A stretch of 64,000 bases of DNA, from NCBI GenBank assembly GCA_964640655.1, contig CAZXFT010000012.1:32191-96190 (forward strand), written 5' to 3'. Positions 30,319 through 58,772 of the stretch are shown piece after piece. Every line of letters begins with the position of its first letter. Within the stretch, counting starts at the first letter, position 1. The position numbers and the translations under genes were made by a program. The notes under the pieces are model-generated. The model was given only the letters and a program-made list of their open reading frames with translations, was not told where the DNA came from and searched no databases. This DNA is from an uncultured Bifidobacteriaceae bacterium. Its GTDB lineage: Bacteria; Bacteroidota; Bacteroidia; Chitinophagales; UBA10324.

Positions 30319-30319
30319 G

Positions 30320-31111: not shown

Positions 31112-31112
31112 A

Positions 31113-32555: not shown

Positions 32556-32556
32556 G

Positions 32557-33378: not shown

Positions 33379-33380
33379 AG

Positions 33381-35246: not shown

Positions 35247-35248
35247 AA

Positions 35249-35689: not shown

Positions 35690-35693
35690 GACA

Positions 35694-37565: not shown

Positions 37566-37577
37566 AATAAAAAGAGT

Positions 37578-37623
37578 AAAAAAACCACAGAAGGTTTGAA
37601 TAAATTCAGCCTGCTGTGGTTTT
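37578..37623 (-). terminator. Intrinsic terminator/attenuator between hcp and vgrG
   Basis: Hairpin AAAACCACAGCAGGCTGAA-TTTA-TTCAAACCTTCTGTGGTTTT followed by a T-run. Confidence 0.75.
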
Positions 37624-37661
37624 CAGTTTAGTTAATGAACTTTCTTAAAAGCTAATCCCGA

Positions 37662-38057
37662 TTAGGATTTGGGCCAGTCGTTAACGTGCTTAGCGTTACC
37701 GATGGTAAGTGTTTGAGCAGAGATGGTAATGTTATATACCATTGAATCGCCGCCAAATTGAGAAAATGCTTCGGAATAGCCGATGATATATGCATTCTCA
37801 AAAGTAATTTCCTTCAATTTAGCATCCTCATCAGTCTTCTTCCAGACAATATTGCCACTAATCATTTTGTGTGGACTGTTGATCATGGTTTCAAGAATTG
37901 AGGTGTCTGAAGTGGATTCAATTGTAATATCTACAGTTCCACCGTAGTTGCCTGATGATGGTCTTCCTTTGAAGTCAACATCACGACGGAAAGCATAGGA
38001 GCAAGACATTACGTCGTAAGGTTTGCCTCCGATTGTTAATAAGCCTTTAAATGACAT
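37662..38057 (-). CDS. tssD: T6SS-iii tube protein TssD/Hcp
   Basis: MSFK..L...G..Y.V..C.Y.F.R.VD.KGRPSS...GG.V.I.IEST, F.NAYII.YSE.F, ISA. Confidence 0.93.
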   Translation of the reverse strand: MSFKGLLTIGGKPYDVMSCSYAFRRDVDFKGRPSSGNYGGTVDITIESTSDTSILETMINSPHKMISGNIVWKKTDEDAKLKEITFENAYIIGYSEAFSQFGGDSMVYNITISAQTLTIGNAKHVNDWPKS

Positions 38058-38104
38058 AGTTTAAAATTGGGTTTTTATTGTTTAAAAAAAATGTTAATAA
38101 TTAA

Positions 38105-39484: not shown

Positions 39485-39507
39485 TTTTTATTTTACTTTT
39501 TAGGTGA

Positions 39508-39963
39508 TTATTTAGTGTGGTCTTCTAGTTCCTGAATTAATGATTTCAGTGAATCGATAAATGCATTTTTTGTTTCAGGATTTTCGGCAACTGATTTGAG
39601 TAACTTGTTGGTCTTCAATTGCTTGATGATGTTTTGATATTGATCCTGTTGCAATTGTTGGTCTTTTAAAAATTTACTGTTTTCAGTTATATTCTTTGCA
39701 TTGAAGTCACCAAGATTTTTGAATTTTAAATTCTCCTGAACCGAACTTCCATCAGCAGTTTCAAAGTCAATATCAACAGACGGTTTAAAATGATCAAACA
39801 CTTCATCTACTGTTTTCAAATCATAAACAGCTTCAGGTTTTATTGGTGCGTCAGCAGTTAATTTCTGAATGAACATGGTTCTGTTCATCGGGATGTCGGA
39901 AATAGCTTCGGAGGTATCTTTTTTTACCTCATTGCCACCTACACCAAAGTTGTACATACTCAT
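39508..39963 (-). CDS. tssB: T6SS-iii sheath small subunit TssB
   Basis: YNFGVGGNEV..D.SEAI.DIP.NRT....LT, F.HFKP.V...F, QLK.NK.L. Confidence 0.92.
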   Translation of the reverse strand: MSMYNFGVGGNEVKKDTSEAISDIPMNRTMFIQKLTADAPIKPEAVYDLKTVDEVFDHFKPSVDIDFETADGSSVQENLKFKNLGDFNAKNITENSKFLKDQQLQQDQYQNIIKQLKTNKLLKSVAENPETKNAFIDSLKSLIQELEDHTK

Positions 39964-39989
39964 AGGTTTTTCAATTTTTTAATTTAAGT

Positions 39990-39997
39990 CAAATGTA
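39990..39997 (-). promoter_or_regulatory. Internal -7 element TACATTTG upstream of tssB
   Basis: Exact TAnnTTTG in the tssH-tssB gap, 26 nt before the ATG. Confidence 0.65.
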
Positions 39998-40038
39998 ACG
40001 GTATAGAAGTTATTAAACAATACCCCTAAAAGGTTATT

Positions 40039-42537: not shown

Positions 42538-44991
42538 TTATCGGTTATAAATTAAATCTCCGGGTGTTTTAGACAGCATTTTGTTAATGATATATGAAGA
42601 AACTAAAATGGATGTTAAGAAGATGACTACGACAGTTACATAAGTATATGTATCAAACAAGATGAAATAAGACACATCACTTTCAACCGTAAAGTTTTGT
42701 TTCAGAAGTGTGTCAATAGTTAATCCTGTTAGATAGGCTACAGTACTAGAAAGAATAATTCCTATAATGATAAAGAAAAGGATAATGGTAAAATAAATTT
42801 TCAGTGAATCGCGGTTACTTAGACCAATAGCCATAAAAGTTCCGATGTTCATTTTCACTTTGCTCAAATGAAGCTTTAAAAGATTGAATAAAAACAAACT
42901 AATTGTGATAGTACCAAACAAAATAACCAGGTAAGAAATGATTTGAGTGATTTTACTCAGGAAGTTAAAATTCTCTTTTTCCTTTACTTTGGCTAAATCC
43001 ACTTCAATAACATTGCGCGAGGTTTCATCCTTGTCGTTAAAGCGATTGAAAATAAAATCGGAGAAGCTACGTACTGAGTCAAGTTTAGAAAAGTAAATAC
43101 TTAAAAAGTCATACTTGTAATCTGATGTTGACGCTACGGCATCATCATAGTTATAAACCTGTTTAAATGCGGCATTTTTCAGCGGTGACTCAGATTCAAG
43201 TGTCGAACAAAATCTTTGACGCTCAACATCACTCGTAAATGGTTCCATCAAATTGATGGTAAGATCGAAGCCATCTTTGAAAGAAGCTACGTGTTTACCA
43301 GGATTAGCAATAATCTTAGGGTCATTAAATTCATATGCGGTTAACTTCTGAAAATAGTCGTTGAGTTGATTCTTAATTTCAAAAGCTGTTTTCTCATCGG
43401 TATATAAAACATATTGAACGTTTTTATTCTTGCGTGTTAGATCAAAAATATCGTCGATCTTATTGGTATATACAGGATAGAAGTATTCTGATACGGCAAT
43501 GTTGTTTTTTCCCGGTAATTCACGTACAATGGCGCGTACAGGTATGGGCACACGTAATTCTATTTCTCTGTGCGACGTGGTATCAACGATTGTGTTTCTG
43601 ATATAGATGTAGTCATCGTCTTCGGTGTATCCTAATTTTTTATAAAAAGATTCAGTTACGATTATGCTCAGATCTTCTTTAAAAAGGTTTTCGTTGTTAC
43701 CTCGTACAATGTTTTTTGGCCCAAGGATATAATCATTAATTAGACTTAAATCTTTGCCTATATCAAGCGTTCTGCATTTGGCATATTCTATATTATTTGA
43801 ATTATTATAGTTAACTCTAAGTGAAAATTCCTTGGTCGAAGAAATAGTAGAATAAGAGTAATTGTTCTTAAACTCATCATTATCCAAAGTGTTTTTAATT
43901 TGGTTAATCATTTCCTGACTTCCACGAGAAGCAGGAATACTGATTTGCAGCCAGTTAGTAAATGCGCTATCCAGTTTTTTGTGCAGATAATCCAGACAAC
44001 CATTTGCAAAACCCACCGCAAGAAAAGTAAAAAATAATATTCCACATAGCACAAGCAGGTTAGAAAAGTTCTTTCCTGCTATAGCTTTAGATTCTTTACT
44101 AAGAAATAATCGGAAGTAGTTCTTGTAATACGACTTTGAAATACGCTGATCTACTGTTTGATGAATCTGAGAATCAACATTAGTCTGATATAAAGCTTTA
44201 ATGCGGTTTCTGAATTGCGATAAGTCATTCTGATTTAAAGATTCCCACTGCGTGCGGTTAAAAATATTTTCCGGTAATACTTCACCAAAGCCCTTTGATT
44301 TATCTTTAGTTATTAATACAATTTCATCAGCGTGAGCTAGTGCCAGATTGATATCGTGCGACACTATGATGGAAGAAAGACTGCTGCTGAGGTTAGAACG
44401 AATCAACTTCATAAGTTCGTTGGCATTCGCCTCATCTAAATTTCCTGTTGGTTCATCACCTAATAACACGTGAGCTCCGGTATTTAATGCGCGCACAAAA
44501 GCTATCCGCTGACGCTGACCGCCGGAAAGGTTAACAGCAAGAGTAGTTTCGTTAACTTCTGATTCTGGTAAATTAACGCGCTTCATTAAATCCTTTGCAC
44601 CTGCCAACACATCAAGCTCTGATTTGGATTCTTTTATCATGCGAGAGAGACTGATGTTCTCGTACGCTGTGAAATTTTCCATCAGATTTGTATTCTGAAA
44701 GATGAAACTTAAATGCTTCTTTCTGACTTCGGAAAGTTGAGTAGCATTTGCCCAGAGTTTTTTGAATTCAAGTCTTTCTTTTTCATTAATAAAAGTTACT
44801 TCACCACCGGCTATGGTATTATTCATTAAGCCTATGGTCTCAAGCAAAGTACTCTTACCTGTGCCTGAAGCACCTAACAGAAAAGTGATACATCCGGCTT
44901 TGATGTCAAGATTATTAATGCTTAACACCTTATCGGCAGAAACACCATTATAGGAACAGTCTAACTGTCGTATCTCAAAAACATTACTCAT
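42538..44991 (-). CDS. Fused ABC ATPase-permease (MacB/LolCDE-like architecture)
   Basis: Walker A GASGTGKST, LSGGQRQR, LLGDEPTGNLD, VSHD; TM1, large periplasmic domain, 3 C-terminal TMs, tail TPGDLIY. Confidence 0.88.
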   Translation of the reverse strand: MSNVFEIRQLDCSYNGVSADKVLSINNLDIKAGCITFLLGASGTGKSTLLETIGLMNNTIAGGEVTFINEKERLEFKKLWANATQLSEVRKKHLSFIFQNTNLMENFTAYENISLSRMIKESKSELDVLAGAKDLMKRVNLPESEVNETTLAVNLSGGQRQRIAFVRALNTGAHVLLGDEPTGNLDEANANELMKLIRSNLSSSLSSIIVSHDINLALAHADEIVLITKDKSKGFGEVLPENIFNRTQWESLNQNDLSQFRNRIKALYQTNVDSQIHQTVDQRISKSYYKNYFRLFLSKESKAIAGKNFSNLLVLCGILFFTFLAVGFANGCLDYLHKKLDSAFTNWLQISIPASRGSQEMINQIKNTLDNDEFKNNYSYSTISSTKEFSLRVNYNNSNNIEYAKCRTLDIGKDLSLINDYILGPKNIVRGNNENLFKEDLSIIVTESFYKKLGYTEDDDYIYIRNTIVDTTSHREIELRVPIPVRAIVRELPGKNNIAVSEYFYPVYTNKIDDIFDLTRKNKNVQYVLYTDEKTAFEIKNQLNDYFQKLTAYEFNDPKIIANPGKHVASFKDGFDLTINLMEPFTSDVERQRFCSTLESESPLKNAAFKQVYNYDDAVASTSDYKYDFLSIYFSKLDSVRSFSDFIFNRFNDKDETSRNVIEVDLAKVKEKENFNFLSKITQIISYLVILFGTITISLFLFNLLKLHLSKVKMNIGTFMAIGLSNRDSLKIYFTIILFFIIIGIILSSTVAYLTGLTIDTLLKQNFTVESDVSYFILFDTYTYVTVVVIFLTSILVSSYIINKMLSKTPGDLIYNR

Positions 44992-44994
44992 GCT

Positions 44995-47448
44995 TTATGG
45001 GAATATATTGCTTGGCACCCAATAGAAGTAACCATCGAGTGCATCTTTTGCATTCGACTTGTCGTTTTTGATTTTTTCTAACTTGCCAGAGACCTCATAT
45101 AATAGGTTGGCAATAGTGTTAATGTTGTTGTCGTCAACTTTTTTAACATTGTTTAAATCATCAATAGAGTACTTCGTTAATAAATCATTCTTAACAGGTA
45201 ATCCGGTGATCATCGTTAAAACCTCTGAAGGTTTCTTCTTAAGTAAATCAGCTAAAAGTTTAGGATCGACGCTTCCTCCTTTATATGTTATTAAAGTTTG
45301 TTTAAATGCTTCAATAACTTCCTGTCTTTGTTGATCGGAATTACCACCGGATCCGAATCTTTGATAACTCTCCAGTATTTTATCTAATTCTGATCCTGTT
45401 AAAAGTAATGTATAGCTATATACGGGATAAGATAATTTCTTGGAGGACATTGTTGTATAACCCTGAACAAAAAATTGAAAATTTTCTGAAGCATATTTAT
45501 TAATTGTTGAGGGGTCAAGTTTATTGAAATCAACTGCATTCTTAAAAATTTTAGCTATGAGTGGATTGAAACCTGCTTTACCTGCTGTTTCAAAACCTTT
45601 AATAATGTTGATGACACCATCAACAGCCATTCTAATTGAACGGTCGGCATTAAGCACTAAAGAGTCGAGTGCTTTTTCAACTTCATCAGTTCTCATTGAA
45701 GAACCTTCAAGAGGGAAAAGCAAGTAATCATTCACAGGTCCATCATTAGGAACATTAATAGACCATATTGTGCCTGTATTATTGCGAGCACTGAATACGG
45801 GTTTTTTAAACTCTTTCTTTTGATTTACTAACTCTAGTGTTTTATTAATATCATCGTTCAGCATAGCAGATGAATTTTTGATGATGTTTCTTGCATCGGT
45901 AACAAATTGTTCAAATTCTGGTGCATAACCATTGTTGGCTTGAATGGCTGAGAATGTAACACCATACTGCGCCAGTTTTTCCTCGACTTTAGTTCTGCTG
46001 TATTGAATGTCTTCAGGGTCGTTGGACGCACTGCCTATGAGTATTAAAATATTCGACTCGTAACGTTCGGTGAATAATCGTGAACCATTCATGATTGCTT
46101 CAAAAACCGGCTGGTACGGACTTTTTTCAGTGCACTGATATTTTGCCGCTAACTCTTTTTTAATATTAAATAAAAATGAACTCACAGAAGAATTCAGTCC
46201 GCTGCTAGCAACAATATCTGCATTGCATGATTTATATGACTTATCACGATATACAACAAAGCCATACTTATATTGGTATTCGCTGGATATACCAATGTTA
46301 TCTAATGACTTTTGAATGGCTTTCAGGATATTCTCATTGTATGAGGCCATTTCTTCTGAACCGTCAATAACAAAAACAATGTTTACCTTTTTAGCCAAAG
46401 CCAAGATATCTGCTGTATTCTTATCAATTAATGGTCTGTCTGAATTGCCTATAATTTTTTGACCTGATTTACTAATGATATCAGTTGTGAAACCTGTAGT
46501 AATAATTCCTTCATTATCCTGGCTTATAACAGGTGAGCGAAAGTCATAAGATGTTAATTTTTTGTAAGTATCATCTTCTTTCCATAAGGGATCAGTTGGG
46601 TATGTACCGGATTGAAATTTTGATGCTTCGGACGAGGTTCCAACTATACATGCGTTTAATCCTTTTTGTTTACGGTCCTGAATAGCCTCAGCATTTTGAT
46701 TAGGTTCTATACAAATACAGTTTGCCCATTTTTTAATCAGTCCGCTAGAAATCCATCCCAGTATTTTCTCTTCGCAGTTGCGTCCGGTTATTGAATTGGT
46801 TTTGCATAACAAATAAGATGTGTCATTGTTGGATATATACATCTTGGATATAAAGATGTACTGAAACAGCCGGAGTGATTTATCCTGAATCACCTGAGTT
46901 CGAACTGGATCATAGTATAGTTTGATTTCACCATTATAAGAATTAATGTATCTGCCTAAGTCCTTTAAAACAGTTAAATCAGATACAACGGTCAGTGCTT
47001 TTAAATAAACAAATGTATTGGTAGCAACAAGGCTTGAACTCCAAAGAAGTAAATCTTTCTTCTTTACCCAGCCAATAGAAACACCTTCGGATCCTGTTTT
47101 CCATTTACTATCAATTGGAACACCCGGATTGTATTCCATTAAATTTAAATAATCACCTTTTTCGCCTATAACCCAGGCTGGTGTCATGAATTTTAATTTG
47201 CGAACCACAGTGGAACTATTTGGATTATCAAATGCTTGAACATCGTTTCGAGTTGTATACACTGTCCAAATCGTATTGTCTTTTTCAGCATTTGTGTGAT
47301 CAGTTATTTCTGTGCCATCGGGGAATTTGTATGCATCGGGGGTTCTGAATACCATTGTTCCTTTAGGCACACTCTTGTTTTGTGCCCATATTGTGGTATT
47401 GATAAATAAAAGTAAAATGCCGGCTTTAATCCAGTACTTGAATGTCAT
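44995..47448 (-). CDS. tssR: T6SS-iii TssR (VWA-domain membrane-complex protein)
   Basis: Signal peptide from ATG 47448; W.VY..R, GWV.K..LLLW, LGWIS...I..W, VNIVFVIDGS (VWA), C-terminal FYWVP...FP. Confidence 0.82.
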   Translation of the reverse strand: MTFKYWIKAGILLLFINTTIWAQNKSVPKGTMVFRTPDAYKFPDGTEITDHTNAEKDNTIWTVYTTRNDVQAFDNPNSSTVVRKLKFMTPAWVIGEKGDYLNLMEYNPGVPIDSKWKTGSEGVSIGWVKKKDLLLWSSSLVATNTFVYLKALTVVSDLTVLKDLGRYINSYNGEIKLYYDPVRTQVIQDKSLRLFQYIFISKMYISNNDTSYLLCKTNSITGRNCEEKILGWISSGLIKKWANCICIEPNQNAEAIQDRKQKGLNACIVGTSSEASKFQSGTYPTDPLWKEDDTYKKLTSYDFRSPVISQDNEGIITTGFTTDIISKSGQKIIGNSDRPLIDKNTADILALAKKVNIVFVIDGSEEMASYNENILKAIQKSLDNIGISSEYQYKYGFVVYRDKSYKSCNADIVASSGLNSSVSSFLFNIKKELAAKYQCTEKSPYQPVFEAIMNGSRLFTERYESNILILIGSASNDPEDIQYSRTKVEEKLAQYGVTFSAIQANNGYAPEFEQFVTDARNIIKNSSAMLNDDINKTLELVNQKKEFKKPVFSARNNTGTIWSINVPNDGPVNDYLLFPLEGSSMRTDEVEKALDSLVLNADRSIRMAVDGVINIIKGFETAGKAGFNPLIAKIFKNAVDFNKLDPSTINKYASENFQFFVQGYTTMSSKKLSYPVYSYTLLLTGSELDKILESYQRFGSGGNSDQQRQEVIEAFKQTLITYKGGSVDPKLLADLLKKKPSEVLTMITGLPVKNDLLTKYSIDDLNNVKKVDDNNINTIANLLYEVSGKLEKIKNDKSNAKDALDGYFYWVPSNIFP

Positions 47449-48103
47449 AGTTAATGTAGTTTTTCTCTTCTTTATTATTGTAGAATTGTAGTAATGATAT
47501 GAGTTCAGATTGCATTTTCTCTTTTGACATTTTTTGATTCTTATCTTCTTTATAAGAAACACGTATCACCACTTGAGTAAATCCGGGATTGCATCCAGTT
47601 AATGTCATTAATTCCATAGGAATGTATTTAAACATCCTCGAAATTTCATAGGGGTTTTTATTGATTGATTTATAAATATAGTCGGACTTGATGTAAAAGT
47701 AACATAACAGAGAGTCGGCAATCTTGATAGGTTCCTGATTGAGAATGTTCAGAATAAACTCGTTATCAAATTTGTAATATGGCGCTCCATATTCATTGTC
47801 AAGATTCAACTCATCTAAAATATCAAGACGCTTGTTAATCTTGGTGTAGTATAAAGGTTTGAGTTTATTGGGCTGATAATAAACAAAGTAATTCTCAGTT
47901 TTAGCAGCTAGTCTGTCTAATGTACTTGATATGTGAATTCGTACGTCGGTATTTAATCTAACTCCGGCTCTGATGTCGGCTTGTCCGTTATCAATATATA
48001 CCAGTGACATAGAGTTCTTCTGTGCGGTAAAAATGTTTTGTGCTCTGGATGAATAATGCATCAACAGACAAATTGAAACGACAAGGGATAGGCGGCGCAT
48101 CAT
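47426..48103 (-). CDS. tssQ: Probable T6SS-iii TssQ
   Basis: Signal peptide, about 225 aa, located between TssP and TssR; assigned mainly by synteny. Confidence 0.55.
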   Translation of the reverse strand: MMRRLSLVVSICLLMHYSSRAQNIFTAQKNSMSLVYIDNGQADIRAGVRLNTDVRIHISSTLDRLAAKTENYFVYYQPNKLKPLYYTKINKRLDILDELNLDNEYGAPYYKFDNEFILNILNQEPIKIADSLLCYFYIKSDYIYKSINKNPYEISRMFKYIPMELMTLTGCNPGFTQVVIRVSYKEDKNQKMSKEKMQSELISLLQFYNNKEEKNYINYDIQVLD

Positions 48104-48105
48104 TA

Positions 48106-49086
48106 TTATTTATATTTATAAGTGATGGTAGCGGATAATATTTTACCTGTTTTTTTATCGGTAGTCATTTCAACTAAGGTTATTTGCAACTGACCTGCGT
48201 TGGCTTTACACTCATTAATGAACGAAGCAAGTTTCTTTGTTTCAGTTTTACCATCTCTAATCAGCTTCACTTCAGTGTTTTGATTATCCTTAAAATTATC
48301 TGCAATCCACTCTCGATTATTATTGTAATTTAAGGAGCCATTATCAGCAATTTCGTTCAATCTGTTTTTTAGCTCTATGGTAGAAACATTTTTTGTGTTT
48401 GTAGGTGGTGGCGGTGGTGGTGGCGGTGGTGGTGAGTTTTGCTTTTGTACTTTATCTTTTGGTGCATCCTTGACTACTGGTTTAACTTCCTGTACAGGCT
48501 CAGGTTTTTTTATAACCACTGTTTTATAAACCGGATCGGAAACATCTGTACTGCATGATATCTGGAAGGTACCGGCCATCTTATATGTATAAGTTGCCTT
48601 TTGTTCACGTGCATCTATACGGCCACTGTAACCAAACTTCCAGTCAAATTTAGTAGCACCTTCTGAAACGCAGGTGAACTCCAATTTCTCTCCCACTTTA
48701 CCTTCTGCAGGACCCGAAATGGCAGCTGTTGGTTTGCTAACTGTTTCCTCAACCAATGACTCGACAACAACAGTGAAAGTATCCTTACATTCAATTTTGT
48801 TATTAATAATAAGACTAATGATATAGCGACCTGGGTTGTCGTATTTATACTTTCCCTCAGCAGTTTCAAAAGTTCCGCTGCCATCTCCCATATCCCATTT
48901 CCATTGTTTGGCTCCGGGTGTTTCATCTTTAAATGAAATTTCTCCACCGGCAATTACTTTTCTTTCGCTGATTGTAAAAATAGCTTTAGTGCAATCTTCA
49001 GCACCACTGAAAAAATATTTAAAGCCAATAATAAGCAGTGCTATGAAAACCACTGCCCCTACTACAAAAATTATCCTTTTATCCAT
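48106..49086 (-). CDS. tssP: T6SS-iii TssP (PKD domains)
   Basis: N-terminal TM helix, two PKD domains (WKWDMGDGS; WKFG.SG.ID...ATY.Y...G), poly-Pro linker. Confidence 0.85.
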   Translation of the reverse strand: MDKRIIFVVGAVVFIALLIIGFKYFFSGAEDCTKAIFTISERKVIAGGEISFKDETPGAKQWKWDMGDGSGTFETAEGKYKYDNPGRYIISLIINNKIECKDTFTVVVESLVEETVSKPTAAISGPAEGKVGEKLEFTCVSEGATKFDWKFGYSGRIDAREQKATYTYKMAGTFQISCSTDVSDPVYKTVVIKKPEPVQEVKPVVKDAPKDKVQKQNSPPPPPPPPPPTNTKNVSTIELKNRLNEIADNGSLNYNNNREWIADNFKDNQNTEVKLIRDGKTETKKLASFINECKANAGQLQITLVEMTTDKKTGKILSATITYKYK

Positions 49087-49101: not shown

Positions 49102-50829
49102 TTATCTGTTATAAAGTGCATATGTTAGACCTACGTTAATACCCCAGGAAAGTATGTTGTTTCGACCTATTCCATTGGTAAGAGACTGGTAGCTGGCAAG
49201 TTTGCGGTTATTATTGCTGAAATCGGTTTTGTCCTCTTTCCAATAAGTACTATAATAAACACTGGACTTACTGTTATTCAACTGTGTGTATATCACAACA
49301 AGACCTGCATTATAATATAACTTGCCTGTAATCAATTTTGCAAACTGAACTTTACCAATGTATGTAAGCGTAAGACCTTCAATACCAAGTGTCTTATCAG
49401 AAGGTATGTTAGGTGTCAGAGAACTTCCATACAGCAATAAATCTTCAAGTGCATTACTCTTTGAGTTATCAAATTTGATAACTCCCGGTGCATTAAGGTC
49501 GTCGTTGATATCTGTTGCAACAAATTTTCCAATAGACTTATCATACTTAGCATATGAGAAATAATTAAATGAAGGTTCATCCTTGGTGAATGTCCATCTT
49601 GCTCTCGTGAAGCTGGGACCCACACCGGCACTGAATTTCAGAAATGAAGTTACTCCCTCAGAGCTCTTACCGCTGATATTAAACTTGTATTTTAAAAAAA
49701 GAATGGGTGCAGTGAGGATGCTATAGTTGATTTGTTCTTCAATGTTGTCAGAAGAAATAATTTTTCGAACACTCTCTATGGTTTGTTTATTCTCGGCATC
49801 AATATTTTTATCAATAAAACTTACAAAGAAATTATCAATACCAACCGTCTGTTTAGCATTGGTGTAAATTGCTCCTAATCCAATACCGAAAACACGTTTT
49901 TTTCTTCCGAAATAATATTCTAATTCGGCTGCAGCGTGCCACTGACCTAATGAAGATTTTTTTATAACATTAAAATCTTCTTTCAGAGCGAATTGAGCAG
50001 GATCGTCATTTGGCGAGAATGTGTTCTTATACCCTTCTGTAAGATTGGTTTGGAACTTCTCCTTGTTAAAATCAACAAACGTCAATGTTCCTCCGGCGTT
50101 GATATTAAAAACAATTCGTTCACCAAAAGCAGGAGGACAACCTCGGTTGCTGAGTATACCTCTTGATCCGGGGCATTTATCTTCATTACCAAAGACCAAA
50201 TCGCCGTCAGAGTCATTACTGAATTTAATTTTGGAGATTTTACCGCTATTTACAACCTTAGTAATTAATGCCGCCGTATAATCTTCATTAAATGAAAATG
50301 TAAGAGTTATTGTATCACGATTGTATGTAATAGGAGAATTTTCCGGAAAGAGCACAACAGGAGTTCCAATACTTGATTTTGCTCTGAACTCTTTTTCAAT
50401 GGTGATATAAACAACGTCTTCTTTAAACTCGTTGAGGTTCACAGATATGTTACGTATTTTTATAATATCAATACCTCTTTTATAAAACTGTTTCAATTCA
50501 CTGATATATTTATCAATATCAACAAGATCGAGATCGTAGGCTACATCATAAACATTCTGCTGTTGTATAACTTGTGGGTTACGGAAAAGATTAGGAACAA
50601 ACTCGTTGTAGATGTCGGCATTATCAGAGAAAAGTGATCTGAATTTTGTAATCGCTTCATTAGTAATGGTATCGCTTCCTGATGTTTTAAACTTATTATA
50701 GTCTTCATAGACATTAAGCAGGGAATCAATCAGTTTAAATGCTTTTAACTTTTTATCCCAACTGATGTCCTGGCTCCAGCCGGAAATAAATACACAAGAC
50801 AATAAAGCGGTGAGTATAATTTTTTTCAT
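49102..50829 (-). CDS. Outer-membrane protein: periplasmic domain, TSP3-like Ca-binding repeat, beta-barrel
   Basis: Signal peptide; DSDGDLVFGNEDKCPGSRG...GCP; amphipathic strands ending WGINVGLTY. Confidence 0.6.
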   Translation of the reverse strand: MKKIILTALLSCVFISGWSQDISWDKKLKAFKLIDSLLNVYEDYNKFKTSGSDTITNEAITKFRSLFSDNADIYNEFVPNLFRNPQVIQQQNVYDVAYDLDLVDIDKYISELKQFYKRGIDIIKIRNISVNLNEFKEDVVYITIEKEFRAKSSIGTPVVLFPENSPITYNRDTITLTFSFNEDYTAALITKVVNSGKISKIKFSNDSDGDLVFGNEDKCPGSRGILSNRGCPPAFGERIVFNINAGGTLTFVDFNKEKFQTNLTEGYKNTFSPNDDPAQFALKEDFNVIKKSSLGQWHAAAELEYYFGRKKRVFGIGLGAIYTNAKQTVGIDNFFVSFIDKNIDAENKQTIESVRKIISSDNIEEQINYSILTAPILFLKYKFNISGKSSEGVTSFLKFSAGVGPSFTRARWTFTKDEPSFNYFSYAKYDKSIGKFVATDINDDLNAPGVIKFDNSKSNALEDLLLYGSSLTPNIPSDKTLGIEGLTLTYIGKVQFAKLITGKLYYNAGLVVIYTQLNNSKSSVYYSTYWKEDKTDFSNNNRKLASYQSLTNGIGRNNILSWGINVGLTYALYNR

Positions 50830-53800
50830 CGGGCTATCATCAGTTTTTGAGTGAGTATTAATCCACTTCCGGATTGGTAGGTTAAAATATATAAACCATC
50901 GTCAAGTTGAGAGGTATCAATAGATTCAAGTGGTTTAAATACTTGTTTATTGATAATAGTTCTTCCACTTAAATCAACAACATGAATAAATGCTTCACCT
51001 GCTATGTAGGGCATTTCCACAACAATATAATCAGAAGACGGATTGGGATAAACTTTAAAGAAATTCTTCAATAAATCGTCGCGGGTAGATGTAACATTCG
51101 ACACATTGTTCAGGAACGAGCGTTGAATGCACGCATTTCCACTCGTCTTATAATCCACATAGTAATAGTTATCGTTCGTGTTCAAAATTTCATTTCCAAA
51201 AACATAAACTGATTGATTCTGATTTGGTGATAATCCGAATGAGATAGAGTTTAGAGCAAATGAACTATTATCATTGAATAAATTTTTTGAAACGCGATGC
51301 CATTGATATTCAATACCGGCGACGTCGTATAACACTGCCATCGAAGCCGGATTAACCGTTAACTGAAACATATCAGCATAAGGCAAGCTGTTAATTTGAG
51401 AGGGGATAGGAATTAATTTAGTCGTTGAACATTTAACATTACCAAAAATATTGGTCGAAGCTGTTAAAGAAATGCTGTTACCAAACAAATCAGGGTCGGC
51501 GATAAAAGCTTTCGTACTGTCATCATTAAATAAACCAAGTTGGTTGCCCCAGCTATAATTTGTATTGGCAGAAGGTTGAATAAATACGTAAACATTTTTC
51601 TGGCCAATGCAAGAAGGTTCTAATGTAAATACTGGTTCGTTAGGTGCAGGATTAAAAGTAATACTCAAGTTTATCGGAGAGCCTTCGCAAGAGTCACTTC
51701 CTAAATGATAAATTGGTATTACACTATATGTTGCTGTTCCGGTAGTACTGTTTGATTGTAACACAGGAACTATACTTGGCAAAATATAATCAGATGTCTT
51801 GATATCCTGTGTCCATAATGAACTAGTTAGAACATTGTTGCTATTAATTCTATTCCACTTATAAGTTGTATTACTTTCTATGGTTGTAGATTCATTGGAT
51901 GTTACTTTTATGTTTCCGGTTTCAGACTTTTCACACCGGACATAAGTGGTGTCATTACCTGAAAGAGTAGGCATAACCTGCAATGTGACAGATGATGGAG
52001 TTCCAGTACAGACTGATGAAGGGCTTGCAACCTGAAAACGAGGAGTTATAGAATAAGAAATGGGCACATGCTTAGTATCATCAAGATTTTGTACCGTAGC
52101 ATTAATGATTGCTAAAGCAGGATTTGAAACTGTAGAAGGGTTTGAAGAGTTGTCGCTTGCGTTTTCCCACGTCCAGTCAAATTTATATGCGGGAGTGCCA
52201 GTAGTTTGAGGTATCAGGTCAACAGCAATAACCGAATTATCACACACATTGACTTTTTGTGGTACGGCTGTAAAAGAAGGAATTGGCAGTACAACGATTG
52301 TGAATGTGGTATCGCCATTGGCCTTATGACAACCCTCGCTTCCTCCTGCTGTACTGGGTAATACGGGGTCGTAATGTATAACTGCTTGTTGTGCAGCTGA
52401 TGTAGCGTTTGTTAAGTTTAATGTAAATGTATTACCACCTAAATTAGAACTAACGTTATTTCCTGAACAAGTACCATTACAAGAAATGCTACCACTTTGA
52501 CTGGAACTAAAAAACCAATCATAGTTATATGTTGCTGTACTTAACAAAGCCAAAGTAACCGTACTGTTTACACCAGAACATATCGTATCAGGGAAAACAG
52601 GTGTTACTGAATTTAGGGAAGGATTAACGTTAACAATTCGAGTTGCGCTTGAAGTACAACTATTCGCCGCCGTTCCGACAACTGTGTATGTTGATGTTGC
52701 AGTTGGGTTTGCAGTAACCGTTGCACCTGATGAGGGACTTAATCCAGCAGATGGTGTCCAAGTATATGATGATGCGCCTGACGCGGTTAATGAAAAACCT
52801 TGACCAAAGCATATTGTAACGGTTGCAGGGCTTACTGAGACTGTTGGTAAAGGAAGTATAGTTACTATTCTAGTAGAAGTTCCAGTACACCCTGCGGCAG
52901 AGGTGCCTGTTACTGTGTAAGTAGTCGTTGAGGATGGGCTCGCATTTACATTAGTTCCCGTTGTAATATTTAAACCTGTTGATGGAGTCCAAGTATATGT
53001 TGATGCTCCTGATGCTGTTAATGTAGCACTTGCTCCAAGGCAAATTGAAACGGTGGCGGGAGAAACATTAACTGTAGGTAATGGGTTTATTGTAACTATC
53101 CTGGTTGCTGTAGATGTGCAACCAGCAGCAGATGTTCCGGTAACAGTATAAGTTGTTGTTGCAACAGGGCTTGCGTTAACGGAACTTCCATTTGTTGCAC
53201 TTAAACCTGTTGATGGGGTCCAGGTGTATGTTGATGCTCCCGATGCTGTCAAGCTTTGAGATGCACCAATGCAAATTGAAACAGTAGCGGGAGAGATAGA
53301 AACCGTAGGCAAAGGATTAACCGTTACTATCCGTGTAGCATTCCCGGTGCATCCGTTCGCAGCAGTGCCTGTGACAGTATATGTTGTTGTTGAAGCAGGA
53401 CTGGCAGTAACAGTTGCTCCTGTTGTCGGACTAAGTCCGGATGAAGGTGACCAACTATAAGTATTAGCACCGGAAGCGGTTAATGGAATACTTCCACCTG
53501 CACAAATGGTTGCTGTAGCAGGTGAGACAGAAATGGTGGGTACAGGGTTTACGGTTACTATTTTAGTTGCAGTGCCTGTACATCCATTCGCTGTTGTACC
53601 GGTTACGGTGTATGTTATTGTTGAAGAAGGATTGGCTGAAACAGTTGCACCTGTGGTAGCACTCAAACCTGTTGAAGGTGTCCAGGTGTATGTTGATGCT
53701 CCTGAAGCTGTAAGGTTGATACTGGAGCCTGAACAAATAGAAGCGGTGCTTGGACTGACGCTCACTGATGGTAACGGATTTACTGTTACTGTTTTGGATG

Positions 53801-54869
53801 CTGTACCTGAACATCCGTTAGCTGTTGTACCCGTTACAGTATAAGTTGTTGTTGATGTTGGACTGGCTGTAACTGTTGCACCGGTTGTCGCACTCAATCC
53901 TGTTGCAGGTGTCCACGAATAAGTATTGCCACCGCTTGCGGTTAGATTAATTGATCCACCGGAACAAAAAGCGGCTGTAATTGGTGAAATTGAAATACTG
54001 GCTGAGCTATTGACAGTTACTACTACAGTAGCAGTAGATGAGCACCCTGATGAAGTACCTGTAACAGTATATGTAGTGGTAACTGTTGGACTGGCAGTAA
54101 CCGAAGTACCAGTAGTGGTATTTAATCCTGATGATGGCGACCAGGAATAAGTAGTTGCTCCGCTTGCAGTTAATGATGTGGACTGTCCGTTACATAAGGT
54201 TGCAGATGAGGGATTGACAGAAACAGAAGGCGTGCTGTTTACAGTTATTGCCTGATTAAAGGAACAACTGGCTCCGTTACCGTCAGTAATAGTAACGGTA
54301 AATGTACCCGATGCAGAAGGTGTAATTACATTTGTAGTTGCGCTATTGCTCCATAGATAACTTAACCCACTACCTTGAGTACTGCAAGTACCTATAGTAT
54401 TTCCAGAGCAAACTGTTGTTGGTGTTATTACAGGTTGTATGATTGTTATCTGGTTGGTTGTAACCGGTGTACTTACTGCTATTTGTGTGTTGTTGTTACA
54501 AATAATTACACGAGTCTTGTATACGCCACACTGGGTGAAAGTACTTGCATTAAATGTGAAACTTACCGGAGACAATGTTCCGGTTCCTGAAATTGCGGAA
54601 GGATGATTAACGGTAAACCCAGAAGTTTGATTACAGGCATCAAAGACATCCTGATTTGCAGAACCTAAAGGACCCTTAGCTATCTGAAATTTTAAAGTCC
54701 TATTACTCCCAACTCCCGTGTATTTAATATGTGTGGTTAAACTAAATTGCTGAAGAGCAGTTGAACAAAATATTTTCACACCTGAAATACTATCTAAAGT
54801 GACACTTTGTGCAAATAGATGATTCAATGAAAAGATAAAGAAAACAATCAGTGATAATTTTTTCTTCAT
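50826..54869 (-). CDS. Large T9SS type-A CTD cargo with tandem Ig/PKD-like repeats (adhesin-like)
   Basis: Signal peptide from ATG 54869 (MKKKLSLIVFF...LFAQ); seven 77-aa repeats; CTD VYPNPSSD...VDLSGR...IDTSQLDDGLYIL...QKLMI. Confidence 0.9.
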   Translation of the reverse strand: MKKKLSLIVFFIFSLNHLFAQSVTLDSISGVKIFCSTALQQFSLTTHIKYTGVGSNRTLKFQIAKGPLGSANQDVFDACNQTSGFTVNHPSAISGTGTLSPVSFTFNASTFTQCGVYKTRVIICNNNTQIAVSTPVTTNQITIIQPVITPTTVCSGNTIGTCSTQGSGLSYLWSNSATTNVITPSASGTFTVTITDGNGASCSFNQAITVNSTPSVSVNPSSATLCNGQSTSLTASGATTYSWSPSSGLNTTTGTSVTASPTVTTTYTVTGTSSGCSSTATVVVTVNSSASISISPITAAFCSGGSINLTASGGNTYSWTPATGLSATTGATVTASPTSTTTYTVTGTTANGCSGTASKTVTVNPLPSVSVSPSTASICSGSSINLTASGASTYTWTPSTGLSATTGATVSANPSSTITYTVTGTTANGCTGTATKIVTVNPVPTISVSPATATICAGGSIPLTASGANTYSWSPSSGLSPTTGATVTASPASTTTYTVTGTAANGCTGNATRIVTVNPLPTVSISPATVSICIGASQSLTASGASTYTWTPSTGLSATNGSSVNASPVATTTYTVTGTSAAGCTSTATRIVTINPLPTVNVSPATVSICLGASATLTASGASTYTWTPSTGLNITTGTNVNASPSSTTTYTVTGTSAAGCTGTSTRIVTILPLPTVSVSPATVTICFGQGFSLTASGASSYTWTPSAGLSPSSGATVTANPTATSTYTVVGTAANSCTSSATRIVNVNPSLNSVTPVFPDTICSGVNSTVTLALLSTATYNYDWFFSSSQSGSISCNGTCSGNNVSSNLGGNTFTLNLTNATSAAQQAVIHYDPVLPSTAGGSEGCHKANGDTTFTIVVLPIPSFTAVPQKVNVCDNSVIAVDLIPQTTGTPAYKFDWTWENASDNSSNPSTVSNPALAIINATVQNLDDTKHVPISYSITPRFQVASPSSVCTGTPSSVTLQVMPTLSGNDTTYVRCEKSETGNIKVTSNESTTIESNTTYKWNRINSNNVLTSSLWTQDIKTSDYILPSIVPVLQSNSTTGTATYSVIPIYHLGSDSCEGSPINLSITFNPAPNEPVFTLEPSCIGQKNVYVFIQPSANTNYSWGNQLGLFNDDSTKAFIADPDLFGNSISLTASTNIFGNVKCSTTKLIPIPSQINSLPYADMFQLTVNPASMAVLYDVAGIEYQWHRVSKNLFNDNSSFALNSISFGLSPNQNQSVYVFGNEILNTNDNYYYVDYKTSGNACIQRSFLNNVSNVTSTRDDLLKNFFKVYPNPSSDYIVVEMPYIAGEAFIHVVDLSGRTIINKQVFKPLESIDTSQLDDGLYILTYQSGSGLILTQKLMIAR
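52621..54240 (-). repeat. Seven tandem ~231-nt repeats encoding Ig-like domains
   Basis: Unit P.VSVSP....IC.G.S..LTASGA.TY.W.PS.GL..TTG..V.ASP..TTTYTVTGT...GC...ATR.VTVN. Confidence 0.9.
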
Positions 54870-54924
54870 AGGGTTTGGGGGTTGGACTCGCAATATAACT
54901 GCATTTTTAAATACCTGTAGGTTT

Positions 54925-56235
54925 CTATTTTATTTCTTCAACTATATTTTCTGTATTGTCATTAATGGTAGTGGAGATTACTCTAAACTTAAAATGCCCC
55001 TGGCGGTGCCCAATTTCATAATTGATATTGTATTTAAGTTTTTCGTCCTCCATGGCCATTTTTTTAAATTTTACATTATCATTTTTCTTTGAACAGGAAA
55101 CTACATAATCCACCTTTCGAACCTTAATTGGAATACTAAACCTGGTGTTTACGCGAACCAGTTCATTATTTACATATCGCGAAGCAACATCCCATTTCTT
55201 TTGAAGCATTCTCATTTCAAGATTCTTCTTGAATGAAACTTTGTTTTGAGTGGAGTCTATATTATTGAAAACAATCCTTTGCATAGAGCCAGACTTATTT
55301 ACATAACATTCGAGGATTGCATTGTAATGAAAATTAATGGGCATGGAATGCATTACTTCTTCAATATCTTTCTGTATAAACTTCTGATAATACACCACAT
55401 TGGCATTTGATGCTTCTTCAAAAACTTCTTCCACCACCATAGTGTCCACAACTTTTACCGGAGTAGTAACAACTTCCTTAACTGGTTTCTTTTCTTCATT
55501 ATGAACTTCAATGGTTTTTTGCTCGTGGTTTTTTTTCTGTTCTTCTACGGGCTTTTGTTCTGGGTTTTCTTTTTGAACATCAACAGGTTTTGGCTCCGGA
55601 TTTTCTTTCTGTTCTCCAACAGGCTTTATTTCCGGGGTACTATTCTTAATCGGTTGTTTGACTTTCAATAGTGAATTCGGATAGTAACGTTCTATTACAT
55701 CAGCATGCCATTTCTCCACTTCCGGGCTAATACGCTCGAGAGTATAATGATAACCCGGATGCTCAACTCCCAGGTCCACTATTTGATTGAGGTATAAATA
55801 TTTTTCACGTTTATTGTCTTTGAAGAAAAATACAAACTGATAATTGGAATCCATAAGATATGGAATGGTGTCTAAACCATTCGGGAATATGTATCCTGTT
55901 TTTGTTCGTGTTATTTGTTGTGAATATTGAGCCTTAGGAGCTTGAGTATTGTTGGCGGCATATTGCCTGACTACTACCTCCTGATCATTGTTATTGTAAT
56001 CAACTTCTATTGAGCCAAACTCCTTATTAAAATCAGTGAAAGTATAACGTGTTGTATAGTTGTTGTAGCCGTTATAAATTGTGTCTAATTTGAAAATAAT
56101 CTGAAAGGTAGAATCCGAGTATACACTATATGCTATGCCCAGTAAAGGTTTTGTTTTTTTCTGTGCTTGCAGATTTGTCAAAAAGAAAACACACAGGCAT
56201 AATGCTATAAGACAGCCCGGTAATTTAATAGACAT
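54925..56235 (-). CDS. Secreted protein with Lys/Pro/Glu linker and TonB C-terminal-like domain
   Basis: Signal peptide; linker repeats; C-terminal CYVNKSGSM...KWDVAS...VRV.TRFSIPIKV resembles TonB_C. Confidence 0.5.
   Translation of the reverse strand: MSIKLPGCLIALCLCVFFLTNLQAQKKTKPLLGIAYSVYSDSTFQIIFKLDTIYNGYNNYTTRYTFTDFNKEFGSIEVDYNNNDQEVVVRQYAANNTQAPKAQYSQQITRTKTGYIFPNGLDTIPYLMDSNYQFVFFFKDNKREKYLYLNQIVDLGVEHPGYHYTLERISPEVEKWHADVIERYYPNSLLKVKQPIKNSTPEIKPVGEQKENPEPKPVDVQKENPEQKPVEEQKKNHEQKTIEVHNEEKKPVKEVVTTPVKVVDTMVVEEVFEEASNANVVYYQKFIQKDIEEVMHSMPINFHYNAILECYVNKSGSMQRIVFNNIDSTQNKVSFKKNLEMRMLQKKWDVASRYVNNELVRVNTRFSIPIKVRKVDYVVSCSKKNDNVKFKKMAMEDEKLKYNINYEIGHRQGHFKFRVISTTINDNTENIVEEIK
55519..55626 (-). 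repeat. Three 36-nt tandem repeats (KPVxxQKxNxEx)
   Basis: KPVGEQKENPEP / KPVDVQKENPEQ / KPVEEQKKNHEQ. Confidence 0.8.
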
Positions 56236-56240
56236 AAAAG

Positions 56241-56744
56241 CTAATTACGTGGTGCGTTCAGAATAAGCTGATATTTCTCCAATTCACTTTTTGCTTTCTC
56301 TAAATCTTTGTTGCACCTGTTATTTTCCAGCACCAAGGCATTGTATTGATTTGTAACAGTTAACTCATTTTTCTTGGCATCAAGTAAAGCACTATAGCCT
56401 AAAGCAATCTTCTTATAGAACTTAATTGAAGTAGAATCACCGCTGATGTTTTTTAAGCGGGTAATGTGCTCTGCAATATCTGCCTCAACTGCAGACTGAA
56501 CCCTGCCTGGTTTTCCATATACCATAAACCATACATTCAACGAATCTACTATGGCATTTATATTTCCGCCGCCTTTGGACTGTGCTTTTAAATCATAATA
56601 CTCGTTGTGTAAGGTTTTGTAATCTTTCCAGGGAAAACTGTAGTCGATAAAAATAGTTAGCACCACAATAAACACGGTAACTAAAAACATCACTAAAAAT
56701 TGAAAGAAGGCGTTGTTAATCTCTTTTTCGTTCTTCGGCTTCAT
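56241..56744 (-). CDS. tssO: T6SS-iii TssO
   Basis: MKPKN..E...AF.QFL..F TM helix, C-terminal coiled coil with C..DL; follows tssK. Confidence 0.82.
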   Translation of the reverse strand: MKPKNEKEINNAFFQFLVMFLVTVFIVVLTIFIDYSFPWKDYKTLHNEYYDLKAQSKGGGNINAIVDSLNVWFMVYGKPGRVQSAVEADIAEHITRLKNISGDSTSIKFYKKIALGYSALLDAKKNELTVTNQYNALVLENNRCNKDLEKAKSELEKYQLILNAPRN

Positions 56745-56762: not shown

Positions 56763-57911
56763 TTATTCAAGTAATGACCAACCTTTCTTGTTGTCTTTCT
56801 TTTCGGCATTCGATTTTTCACGAACAAATATGTCTCGCTCTTTACGCTTACCTATTAAGTCTAACTGATTTAGTTTGTTAAATAAGTTCTCAAACATCGA
56901 AAGGAAATTATCCACCTTCTGATAAGAGTTGGCTATATTTTTATGGTCGTAGTCGTGAAAGATGATGTCATTCAGAAAGCTGTCGAAGTTTCCGGCATTT
57001 AACTCAGTCCATTCTGAGAAATACAACAGCATTTCTTCCTTTTCTTTTTCTGCAAGGCAATCGTTAAAAACTCTGATGTGATTAGCCATGCGAACAAAAT
57101 AATCAATCAGGAAAACTGGGGGACGATATACAGTTGTTTGTCTGTATTCAAAAAAGATGTCAGCGATGTATGCAATAATCTTTTCGCAAAGATTTTTAAT
57201 ATTTACAGCCAGTGCTGTTGTCTGATTCTTAGAAACAACTTTTTGAATAATCTTGGTGCAGTTCTCTTCTATGGAGTTCAGCGAGGCGCCAAAGTTTCGG
57301 TAATAATTGATCAAAGAAGGGTGGCTGATAACGCTGGTGCTAGGTGGAATATATTTTGTATCAAAAACATAATCATCCCCTTTCAGAAGCACCCTGCCTA
57401 TGGTCAGGCAATAATCCAACCCTGAGTTGTTGGTCAATTGGTCAGCAGGCTGAATGTGCAGCGAATAAGTGTGATTGGTAAACGGCACACGCAGTGGACT
57501 TTCTTCGGGGTTGGCCTGACCATGTAACGCACGGTCGTATGGATTTACCATAATTACAAGGTCATAAACCACTGCTTTGTTTGAGCGTGTTTGTTCATTG
57601 GCGATATCTGTGGTAACAGATAAATCACCAATATTATTAAGTATTTCAATTCTGCAACCACCAATAGTTAATGCACGGCAAGTATTGATACGAATTTTGA
57701 ATTTATCGAAACGACTGTCTATAACATCTAGGCTAATAGTATCGGCATTTTTTTTCCCTGGCAACAGGCCATAATTCCATTCGTTCAGGTTAACGGCATA
57801 AGCATCACGTATGGCATCAATATGTGCACGGTCGCTTTCAATAAAACGATTCTTTGAGATTTTCATCCCATCGATCCAGTTGACTGTGAAATATTTTATT
57901 TCAGGTATCAT
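56763..57911 (-). CDS. tssK: T6SS-iii baseplate TssK
   Basis: VNWIDGMKISK.RF, NYGLLP, CRALT.GG.RI, GQ.NPEE.P.R.P, YIPP, Y.H..I. Confidence 0.88.
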   Translation of the reverse strand: MIPEIKYFTVNWIDGMKISKNRFIESDRAHIDAIRDAYAVNLNEWNYGLLPGKKNADTISLDVIDSRFDKFKIRINTCRALTIGGCRIEILNNIGDLSVTTDIANEQTRSNKAVVYDLVIMVNPYDRALHGQANPEESPLRVPFTNHTYSLHIQPADQLTNNSGLDYCLTIGRVLLKGDDYVFDTKYIPPSTSVISHPSLINYYRNFGASLNSIEENCTKIIQKVVSKNQTTALAVNIKNLCEKIIAYIADIFFEYRQTTVYRPPVFLIDYFVRMANHIRVFNDCLAEKEKEEMLLYFSEWTELNAGNFDSFLNDIIFHDYDHKNIANSYQKVDNFLSMFENLFNKLNQLDLIGKRKERDIFVREKSNAEKKDNKKGWSLLE

Positions 57912-57915
57912 TCAC

Positions 57916-58764
57916 TTAGCTGTTTTCAACTCGTCTGCACACAATAATTTGTTTTTCAGCGAGGTTATTTGTTGAAATTGTTATTTCCGGGTCAATAAAC
58001 TTTTTTGAACCAAACATTCCCGGTTTAATGTAAAACACCCATCCATAAGCCTTACCCTGTGTATCGTGCGTAATGATTGGGTTTTCTTCATACTTATCGT
58101 TATAGTTCTGAATAAACATGCAAAACCAATCAGAGAATAGTAACTCTTCCGGTGCTTTTGCCTTGAAGTTGGTGGTATTGGTTTCTGTAAGGTTTTTTAA
58201 AAATTCAAGTTCCAGTACTTTAACTCTGTTTAAATCAAGATTATCTAAGTCAACCTCGTTAGGAAACTCAGGATAGTACCATACTTTATAAATTGGAACA
58301 GGGATAGCTACTGAAGCTTCAAAGGTGAGGAAATAGAAATAAGGAATGATGAAAGTAAAAAATGCCGAACCAAAGTACCACCCGCCGGTGCGCTCGCTGG
58401 CAAAATCATAAACAATGGAAAACAGCAGGCCCGAAAGAAATACCACAAACAGTTGTAGCAGTATGGCAGATAACATGGGATAATTGAATCGATTACCATA
58501 CTTCTTGATAAAAATTTTGTAAAAGAATATTCCACTAATTGCAGCAAAAAACTGAGTGACTATGAAGAGAACAAAAGGGTTAGAATCCTTAATAAGACCA
58601 ATAAATCCAAACAACGTATGCAGCAGAACAAAAAAAAGTGAGGTTAATATTAACCGAAGCGATTTAAAATCCTGCTTCTGTTTGTTCAAATATTGAAACA
58701 CAATCATGGTTACAAGAACCACAAGTGAAGAAATACCAATATAGGGGTAGTTAAGGTTTATCAT
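57916..58764 (-). CDS. tssN: T6SS-iii TssN
   Basis: 5 N-terminal TMs, IP.P.YK.WYYP, FKAKAP....F.DWF..FI..YN, YGW.FY.K, IDP..TI..N.L. Confidence 0.88.
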   Translation of the reverse strand: MINLNYPYIGISSLVVLVTMIVFQYLNKQKQDFKSLRLILTSLFFVLLHTLFGFIGLIKDSNPFVLFIVTQFFAAISGIFFYKIFIKKYGNRFNYPMLSAILLQLFVVFLSGLLFSIVYDFASERTGGWYFGSAFFTFIIPYFYFLTFEASVAIPVPIYKVWYYPEFPNEVDLDNLDLNRVKVLELEFLKNLTETNTTNFKAKAPEELLFSDWFCMFIQNYNDKYEENPIITHDTQGKAYGWVFYIKPGMFGSKKFIDPEITISTNNLAEKQIIVCRRVENS

Positions 58765-58772
58765 TTAAGCGT

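Follow-up and report, generated by a model that had tools for sequence, protein, structure and literature searches.

In Bacteroides fragilis, the membrane complex of the subtype iii type VI secretion system (T6SS-iii) is formed by TssN, TssQ, TssO and TssP together with TssR; tssP and tssR are essential parts, TssR is a lipoprotein, TssQ, a component that is frequently overlooked owing to divergence, is present, and homologues of the complex are said to be undetected outside T6SS loci (PMC10781749). Type IX secretion system (T9SS) cargo proteins with a C-terminal domain (CTD) of type B are anchored by co-encoded PorP/SprF barrels (PMC9143113, PMC12618676). The TagS/TagT ATPase is required for sensing and response of the Pseudomonas H1-T6SS (PMC13713981). 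In Aureispira, antennae were proposed as the firing trigger of a T6SS-iv, and the grappling-hook protein GhpA has 5,898 aa with 52 immunoglobulin (Ig) repeats, a hook of ~1,400 aa and PorP/PorE partners (bioRxiv 2024.01.29.577165). Here we analysed a 64-kb stretch of DNA (the window; contig CAZXFT010000012.1, positions 32,191 to 96,190, assembly GCA_964640655.1) from an uncultured bacterium deposited as Bifidobacteriaceae and placed by GTDB in the Chitinophagales (UBA10324), in which three genes, orfA, orfB and orfC, lie among the membrane-complex genes of a T6SS-iii.

On its minus strand the window carries a complete T6SS-iii with the gene order tssG-tssN-tssK-tssO-orfA-orfB-orfC-tssP-orfQ-tssR-ABC-tssH-tssB-tssC-hcp-vgrG-tssE-tssF-PAAR, where ABC is an ATP-binding cassette protein gene of MacB type, and the source genome is 99.9% complete. 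The locus is a real and conserved T6SS-iii variant in which the membrane-complex genes lie inside a larger envelope cassette, and this cassette is apparently undescribed in the literature searched. It shares with the B. fragilis locus tssN between tssG and tssK, the tssO, tssP and tssR genes and the full contractile core, whereas no TssQ was found here, TssR has no lipobox and four to five extra conserved genes are present, namely the T9SS cargo, the NTF2-barrel, orfQ, the type VII ABC gene and orfA (PMC10781749). The core components TssB, TssC, TssD, TssE, TssF, TssG, TssH, TssK, VgrG and PAAR were all assigned, TssB and TssK with scores below the cut-off and TssG from synteny only, as tssG has no family match and was named from its position and its similarity to its positional counterparts in relatives. 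Among the window proteins, TssN, TssR, TssC, Hcp, VgrG, TssE, TssF and PAAR have Pfam matches, and the membrane-complex proteins TssN, TssO, TssP and TssR were recognised by Pfam. A second TssO/TssQ-like gene was not found in the genome, where phmmer with two Capnocytophaga TssO-family queries recovered tssO alone, and weakly.

The first-pass annotation had described the three genes as co-directional and closely spaced between tssO and tssP, and this holds. On the minus strand, like all locus coordinates given below, tssO (56241..56744; PF17561, E 1.8e-14) is followed by orfA (54925..56235, 436 aa), orfB (50826-54893, 1355 aa if started at TTG or 1347 aa if started at the ATG in position 54869), orfC (49102-50829, 575 aa) and tssP (48106..49086). 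The spacing is 5 nt between tssO and orfA, 31 nt between orfA and orfB (55 nt to the ATG) and 15 nt between orfC and tssP, and orfB and orfC overlap by 4 nt, as had been noted; with the longest starts, no gap from tssG to tssH exceeds 31 nt (55 nt if orfB begins at the ATG). The remark that no terminator is seen in the trio is also borne out: the terminator scan found no such site between the trio genes and its single minus-strand match in 49102-56235 (55882-55863) falls inside the orfA coding sequence; across 44-64 kb it returned 11 matches as compared to 13.4 +/- 4.2 in shuffled sequences, i.e., no excess. The trio was also considered as a recent insertion, which was rejected, since its GC content of 0.35-0.40 is like that of the neighbouring genes.

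Comparison with related genomes indicates that the conserved unit is cargo-barrel-tssP-orfQ-tssR-MacB-type ABC and not the trio proposed at first. The trio is a family-level form of this wider cassette, because orfA occurs mainly in its own family while the other genes travel together; a shallow profile found no orfA in 12 genomes that carry the cassette but lie outside the family, whereas tssP, orfQ, tssR and the ABC gene accompany cargo and barrel. In 41 relatives, six strong orfC matches were found outside the window, all in TssC-positive genomes and all in the order cargo-barrel-tssP-orfQ-tssR-ABC as far as the contigs reach. TssC was detected in 32 of 351 genomes of the order, and long orfC matches occurred at 14 places in this sample, nine of them in T6SS-iii loci and five in TIR-nSTAND1-cargo-barrel operons. 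The TssR subtype of the cassette was matched in 18 of the 351 genomes (two candidates scored per genome), 11 with TssC and seven without. Within the family, orfA was found in seven of 28 genomes, and these are the same seven that have TssC (7/7 positive, 0/20 negative; 27 of the 28 genomes were tested for TssC, and they are kin, not independent). The linkage to T6SS-iii supposed in the first-pass annotation is thus conserved and not due to chance. A GTDB scan with the C-terminus of the ABC protein, which samples the fused-ABC clade only, gave 33 MacB-type loci from Chitinophagales, Saprospiraceae and unclassified Bacteroidia plus a single Flavobacteriales genome, six of these loci being duplicates. 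The barrel was located upstream of tssR in 20, unrelated genes were found there in four and nine were too short; a T6SS gene was within the stretch at 23 of the 33, and five of eight others tested carry TssC elsewhere.

OrfB is a T9SS cargo, in agreement with the first description of a ~1347-aa protein with seven Ig repeats. It has a signal peptide, seven Ig_7 stretches with repeats 76-77 aa apart, additional Ig/PKD-like domains and a type A CTD (TIGR04183, 39.2 bits against a cut-off of 23), and SprA of the T9SS translocon was found in the genome. The cassette cargos vary from about 680 to over 2800 aa and carry Ig_7, PKD_5, SprB or HYR repeats; the OrfB N-terminus is not conserved, and the final ~280 residues are common to the cassette cargos despite the differing stalks. 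The conserved pre-CTD region of OrfB (residues 1075-1268; 51090..51671) comprises two Ig-like domains, D1 and D2, with the family motifs YQWGxD and YWV..C..K.YYN, and is a candidate for the part that docks on the barrel. The D2 profile matched 28 places in 22 of the 351 genomes, and 26 of these were within cargo-barrel operons (23 are members of the model and three are further cases, the other two standing before trypsin-like genes). The source genome encodes 158 type A-like CTD proteins, among which OrfB is the top D2-profile match. The loci examined contain 37 distinct barrels of OrfC type, and for 34 of them a D2-bearing cargo is encoded at most two genes upstream (two lie at a locus edge and one has none), most of these cargos having gone into building the model. 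Of four more cassette cargos that are outside the model and of testable length, those of G408, G413 and G368 still match (E 1.7e-7 to 2e-13), G412 giving no match. Over 22 loci, pre-CTD divergence followed that of the barrel once TssR was accounted for (partial r 0.31, p 0.006), but not that of TssR once the barrel was accounted for (partial r 0.08, p 0.26).

OrfC consists of a signal peptide, an NTF2-like domain (residues 23-204), one TSP3-type motif (205-233) and an 8-stranded OmpA/NspA-like barrel with long loops (235-575), so that the OM (outer-membrane) barrel with a TSP3-like repeat claimed earlier is recovered, the repeat as a single copy. In the predicted model, folded from a 91-sequence alignment (mean predicted local distance difference test, pLDDT, 85.9), the NTF2-like domain has structural matches of Z about 12 and the barrel superposes on NspA 1p4t with Z 17.6 and a root-mean-square deviation of 2.5 over 152/155 residues. 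The barrel has no Pfam match. A profile search retrieved 166 representatives at E 1e-30 or better, some of which match the TSP3 repeat only. With eight strands, the modelled barrel is too small for an exit channel of the tube. PorP is a 14-stranded barrel. The arrangement resembles that of type B cargo and PorP/SprF in that the barrel gene comes right after the T9SS cargo gene, which hints at a cognate anchor; here, in contrast, the CTD is of type A, the barrel has eight strands and a periplasmic NTF2-like domain, and the conserved part is the pre-CTD domain (PMC9143113, PMC12618676). In five loci (L059:1448-1987, L060:1492-2091, L069:1701-2246, L070:1675-2220 and L073:16552-17163) a free-standing gene of ~180-200 aa lies between cargo and barrel, and the copies in L059 and L073 match the NTF2-like N-terminus of the barrel protein.

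OrfA had been called a TonB-C-like linker protein. It has a putative signal peptide, a beta-sheet domain, a disordered linker and a TonB/TolA-C-like domain (~276-380). The TonB/TolA-like part found weak structural support: the model, folded from six sequences with a mean pLDDT of 56 (about 70-86 in residues ~276-380), resembles TonB/TolA C-terminal domains with Z 5.0-6.1 and Foldseek E 0.05-0.1, values not significant alone. Pfam and NCBIfam gave no match, a sequence search of the PDB gave nothing credible for OrfA, hhalign against the TonB of the window gave 0.4%, and Atlas matches for orfA and orfC (0.90 or lower) are leads only. By eye, OrfA has just one hydrophobic stretch, which is N-terminal and ends at a cleavage-like A-Q site that is conserved. 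An uncleaved inner-membrane helix coupled to ExbBD is not seen, and with this signal-peptide-like N-terminus and no further hydrophobic segment OrfA is unlikely to be an energised TonB. Homologues in G016, G022 and G201 have, from sequence, an added barrel-like C-terminus, and G028 has a partial homologue.

TssP has an N-terminal transmembrane (TM) helix and two PKD domains. It is followed by orfQ (47426..48103), whose exported, conserved product of ~210-225 aa belongs to no known family, is not TssQ-like and gave nothing credible in a sequence search of the PDB. TssR (44995..47448, start set by alignment) is a von Willebrand factor A (vWA) protein with four TssR Pfam domains and a signal peptide without a lipobox cysteine. 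The genome has no tssP or tssR other than those in the cassette. The ABC gene (42538..44991) encodes a protein with intact Walker A/B and signature motifs, four TM helices and a periplasmic domain of ~350 aa; the ATPase, the 4-TM FtsX permease and the large periplasmic domain together place it in type VII (MacB/FtsEX/LolCDE). No MacA or TolC gene was found by Pfam among the locus genes of the window, the rest of the genome not having been searched for them. In L064, L055, L066 and L084 there are two or three tssR-like genes per cassette, some truncated. The tssR of G005 (L019:4922-7427) and the barrel and tssK of G028 (L021:9286-10919 and 18713-19881) are each split into two open reading frames (ORFs), by a break or an assembly error.

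From gene order, domain content, conservation and co-occurrence, we tentatively favour, at a little less than an even chance, a reading in which the cassette extends the T6SS-iii membrane complex as a surface contact sensor and OM anchor for the injection apparatus; within it, the trio is likely to be the outer half of the conserved envelope cassette. T9SS would export OrfB, whose pre-CTD domain may dock on the OrfC barrel at its long outer loops and so fix a replaceable Ig stalk there, much in the way that PorP/SprF hold type B cargo, although the barrel here is unrelated. The periplasmic NTF2-like domain of OrfC would touch TssP, OrfQ or TssR, and the MacB-type ATPase could turn ATP into a periplasmic shape change that licenses or positions assembly or firing, for which the need of the Pseudomonas H1-T6SS response for TagS/TagT is a parallel. 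OrfA may act as an adaptor specific to its lineage, either periplasmic or tethered to a barrel, rather than as a motor. TagQRST likewise combines an ABC-like inner-membrane ATPase with OM and periplasmic partners in a T6SS locus, while here there are an extracellular T9SS protein, an integral barrel and a fused ABC with a large periplasmic domain (PMC13713981, PMC13584744). The Aureispira antenna (bioRxiv 2024.01.29.577165) is a better functional analogue than the hook.

A number of observations weigh against this reading. The TssR subtype of the cassette was matched in only 11 of the 32 TssC-positive genomes of the order sample, the cassette was not seen near the T6SS-iii core in G117, G045, G038 and G119, and canonical T6SS-iii loci without cargo, barrel or ABC exist in G435 and Capnocytophaga, so that T6SS-iii does not need the cassette. 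D2 is derived from a type of pre-CTD Ig domain that is common, and with the orthologue left out, OrfB scored 26.6 bits and the next protein of its own genome 18.8; the two D2 matches before trypsin-like genes (G041, G075) have no barrel following. The cargo of G412 is unmatched, and in G380 barrel and TssR occur without a cargo. The covariation of pre-CTD and barrel is weak evidence, as linkage alone makes adjacent genes co-vary. Homologues of TagQ, TagR and PpkA, or any kinase or phosphatase, were absent from the Pfam and NCBIfam matches of the 28 window proteins scanned, so that the locus has no PpkA-PppA-like pathway. Finally, cassettes without T6SS-iii and cargo-barrel pairs in TIR-STAND operons indicate that the basic job is not T6SS-specific.

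A sister cassette with a TssR-like gene and split ABC and permease genes was found in G084, G106, G177, G235, G301, G408, G412 and G150, genomes that are 95-100% complete, and in all except G150 cargo and barrel-like genes lie upstream. Neither TssC nor TssN was found in these eight genomes, the TssN search having rung in the controls G000 and the divergent G368. TssR-family proteins occur here in genomes where neither TssC nor TssN was found, and in G084 both Pfam TssR and TssR_VWA are above the cut-off; the narrower statement that the complete complex never occurs without a T6SS (PMC10781749) is not contradicted here. In a tree of 41 TssR proteins (a quick IQ-TREE, midpoint-drawn, with one long-branch canonical TssR and the root not fixed), 28 rows (24 with T6SS-iii, three without and one canonical Capnocytophaga TssR) separated from 13 rows (10 without T6SS-iii, three with) at an SH-aLRT of 100. 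G358, G359 and G362, in which TssC, TssN and TssD were not found, nest among T6SS carriers in the main clade; with completeness unestablished, they were treated as loss or gaps and not as evidence. It is possible, though doubtful, that the cassette is a stand-alone Bacteroidota trans-envelope machine (T9SS probe on an NTF2-barrel, vWA/PKD proteins and a type VII ATPase) that was the ancestral source of the T6SS-iii TssP and TssR and was repeatedly coupled to contractile systems, the cargo-barrel pair being a reusable surface receptor that also entered TIR-STAND operons. The couplings would be T6SS-iii in both tree clades and the contractile locus inside the cassette of G238.

The contractile locus of G238 (C14, about 22000-76000; L029, L081, L141) is of extracellular contractile injection system (eCIS)/T6SS-iv type (Pvc16, sheath, gp19 tubes, spike, baseplate) and sits between cargo-barrel-tssR-tssR and the ABC-permease pair; it is a single case. 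A general link of T6SS-iii-less cassettes to eCIS/T6SS-iv was rejected, as there is no enrichment: gp19 tubes are present in 34 of the 81 genomes in family f23 and in two of its four TssR-positive, TssC-negative ones, and in seven of 13 TssC-negative cassette genomes checked. The contractile system of G150 is not beside its cassette genes, and that of G084 is >25 kb away. Operons of a TIR-domain protein, an nSTAND1 NTPase, a D2-bearing T9SS cargo and an NTF2-barrel were seen in L022, L023, L024, L030, L031 and L032 (genomes G023, G014, G005, G013, G017 and G019), stretches that contain no T6SS gene; G005 and G013 also have a T6SS-linked pair.

Among the rivals of the sensor-and-anchor reading, a purely structural role is unlikely but survives best. 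Barrel and cargo would pin the membrane complex to the OM without sensing, the ABC protein would assist assembly or open the peptidoglycan in an FtsEX-like way, and the whole would replace the missing TssQ and the lipid anchor of TssR. The search for a second TssO/TssQ-like gene and the TssR signal peptide agree with this, B. fragilis having both TssQ and a lipoprotein TssR (PMC10781749), and TssNQOPR as described has no integral OM protein. For mere anchoring, however, a variable extracellular stalk of 680 to over 2800 aa is superfluous, and in G177, by Pfam, and apparently in G235 a cassette without T6SS-iii lies next to genes of kinase, FHA and PP2C type, which points to signalling. The Ser/Thr kinase, FHA-trypsin and PP2C genes of G177 (L077) are directly upstream of the cassette; similar-looking genes were seen in G235 (L079), G380, G413 and G368 (L127-L129), the Pfam basis being for G177 alone.

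Still less probable is an independent machine for adhesion or signalling whose only tie to the T6SS is a common operon for co-regulation. The stand-alone cassettes of nearly complete genomes and the reuse of cargo and barrel with TIR-nSTAND1 genes fit such a machine, but the sole tssP and tssR of the genome, both essential for T6SS in B. fragilis (PMC10781749), sit in the cassette, and 24 of 27 non-canonical main-clade TssR rows come from T6SS-iii carriers.

The first-pass annotation had offered catch-and-kill or contact sensing. The latter is retained above as a proposal; the former, in which OrfB is a hook-like prey adhesin tied through the barrel and the TonB-like protein to the T6SS, we consider improbable, cargo and barrel also occurring away from T6SS. 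OrfB is T9SS-exported and barrel-paired like ghpA-ghpB, its stalk is of the same Ig repeat family, both are T9SS surface proteins of a T6SS-bearing Bacteroidota cell, and GhpA is its best PDB match (329 bits, residues 187-724, covering neck and stem repeats only). As a sign of a hook this match was rejected, since in the same genome two paralogues without a T6SS link score 333 and 220 bits against GhpA, and at E 0.001 no PDB match is obtained for the T6SS-linked cargo of G013; 33 proteins of the genome carry the OrfB-type repeat, 19 of them in three or more copies. In contrast to the giant GhpA, a heptamer binding the flagella of prey, with its distal hook and ~50 Ig repeats, OrfB has a quarter of the length, 7 repeats of this type among ~10 Ig-like units, an unconserved N-terminus and no hook head; the genes lie within a T6SS locus, of subtype iii and not iv, and are followed not by PorP- or PorE-like genes but by the NTF2 plus 8-stranded barrel and then tssP (bioRxiv 2024.01.29.577165), so that the grappling-hook analogy is not supported. 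Least probable is a transporter formed by the ABC protein and the barrel, which would sort lipoproteins or act in efflux (for example, of immunity proteins). In its favour, the NCBIfam models nearest to the ABC protein are LolD/MacB/FtsE, all below the cut-off; against it, no cassette examined has a MacA/TolC or LolA-like gene, a barrel of eight strands does not make a protein channel and the constant partner is TssR.

No paper was found that joins TssR, MacB and Bacteroidota type VI secretion, or any three of TssR, von Willebrand, FtsX and T9SS, subscription papers and supplements not being covered, and the main text of a 2026 review of T6SS accessory factors does not mention T9SS, TssR or adhesin. 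The T6SS-iii membrane complex as described lacks an integral OM part, a known trigger and a known ancestor, and the cassette offers candidates for all three; it also suggests a new anchoring mode for type A T9SS cargo, by a cognate 8-stranded barrel. The cassette is present in the cultured strain Flaviaesturariibacter amylovorans JCM 17919 (L048), which opens it to experimental study.

The remaining genes of the locus are the baseplate and connector genes tssG-tssN-tssK (56763..59858) and the contractile core tssH, tssB, tssC, hcp, vgrG, tssE, tssF and PAAR (32908..42525). A tRNA-Arg(ACG) gene (59812..59886, minus strand) lies immediately upstream of the locus and is followed by a terminator-like hairpin (59803-59785, minus strand) from the terminator scan and by a TAnnTTTG element at 59739, which we take to be a Bacteroidota-type promoter motif. 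An ordinary exbB-exbD-tonB-like cluster is located on the plus strand just outside the locus (60816-62788), with no link to orfA found. The region past PAAR (28446-32907) is of effector/immunity type, with a DUF4123 adaptor, a Tae4-family amidase and unknown ORFs of 480, 272, 222 and 116 aa. In G002 (L089), another gene follows PAAR, yet the last three genes are similar to those of the window.

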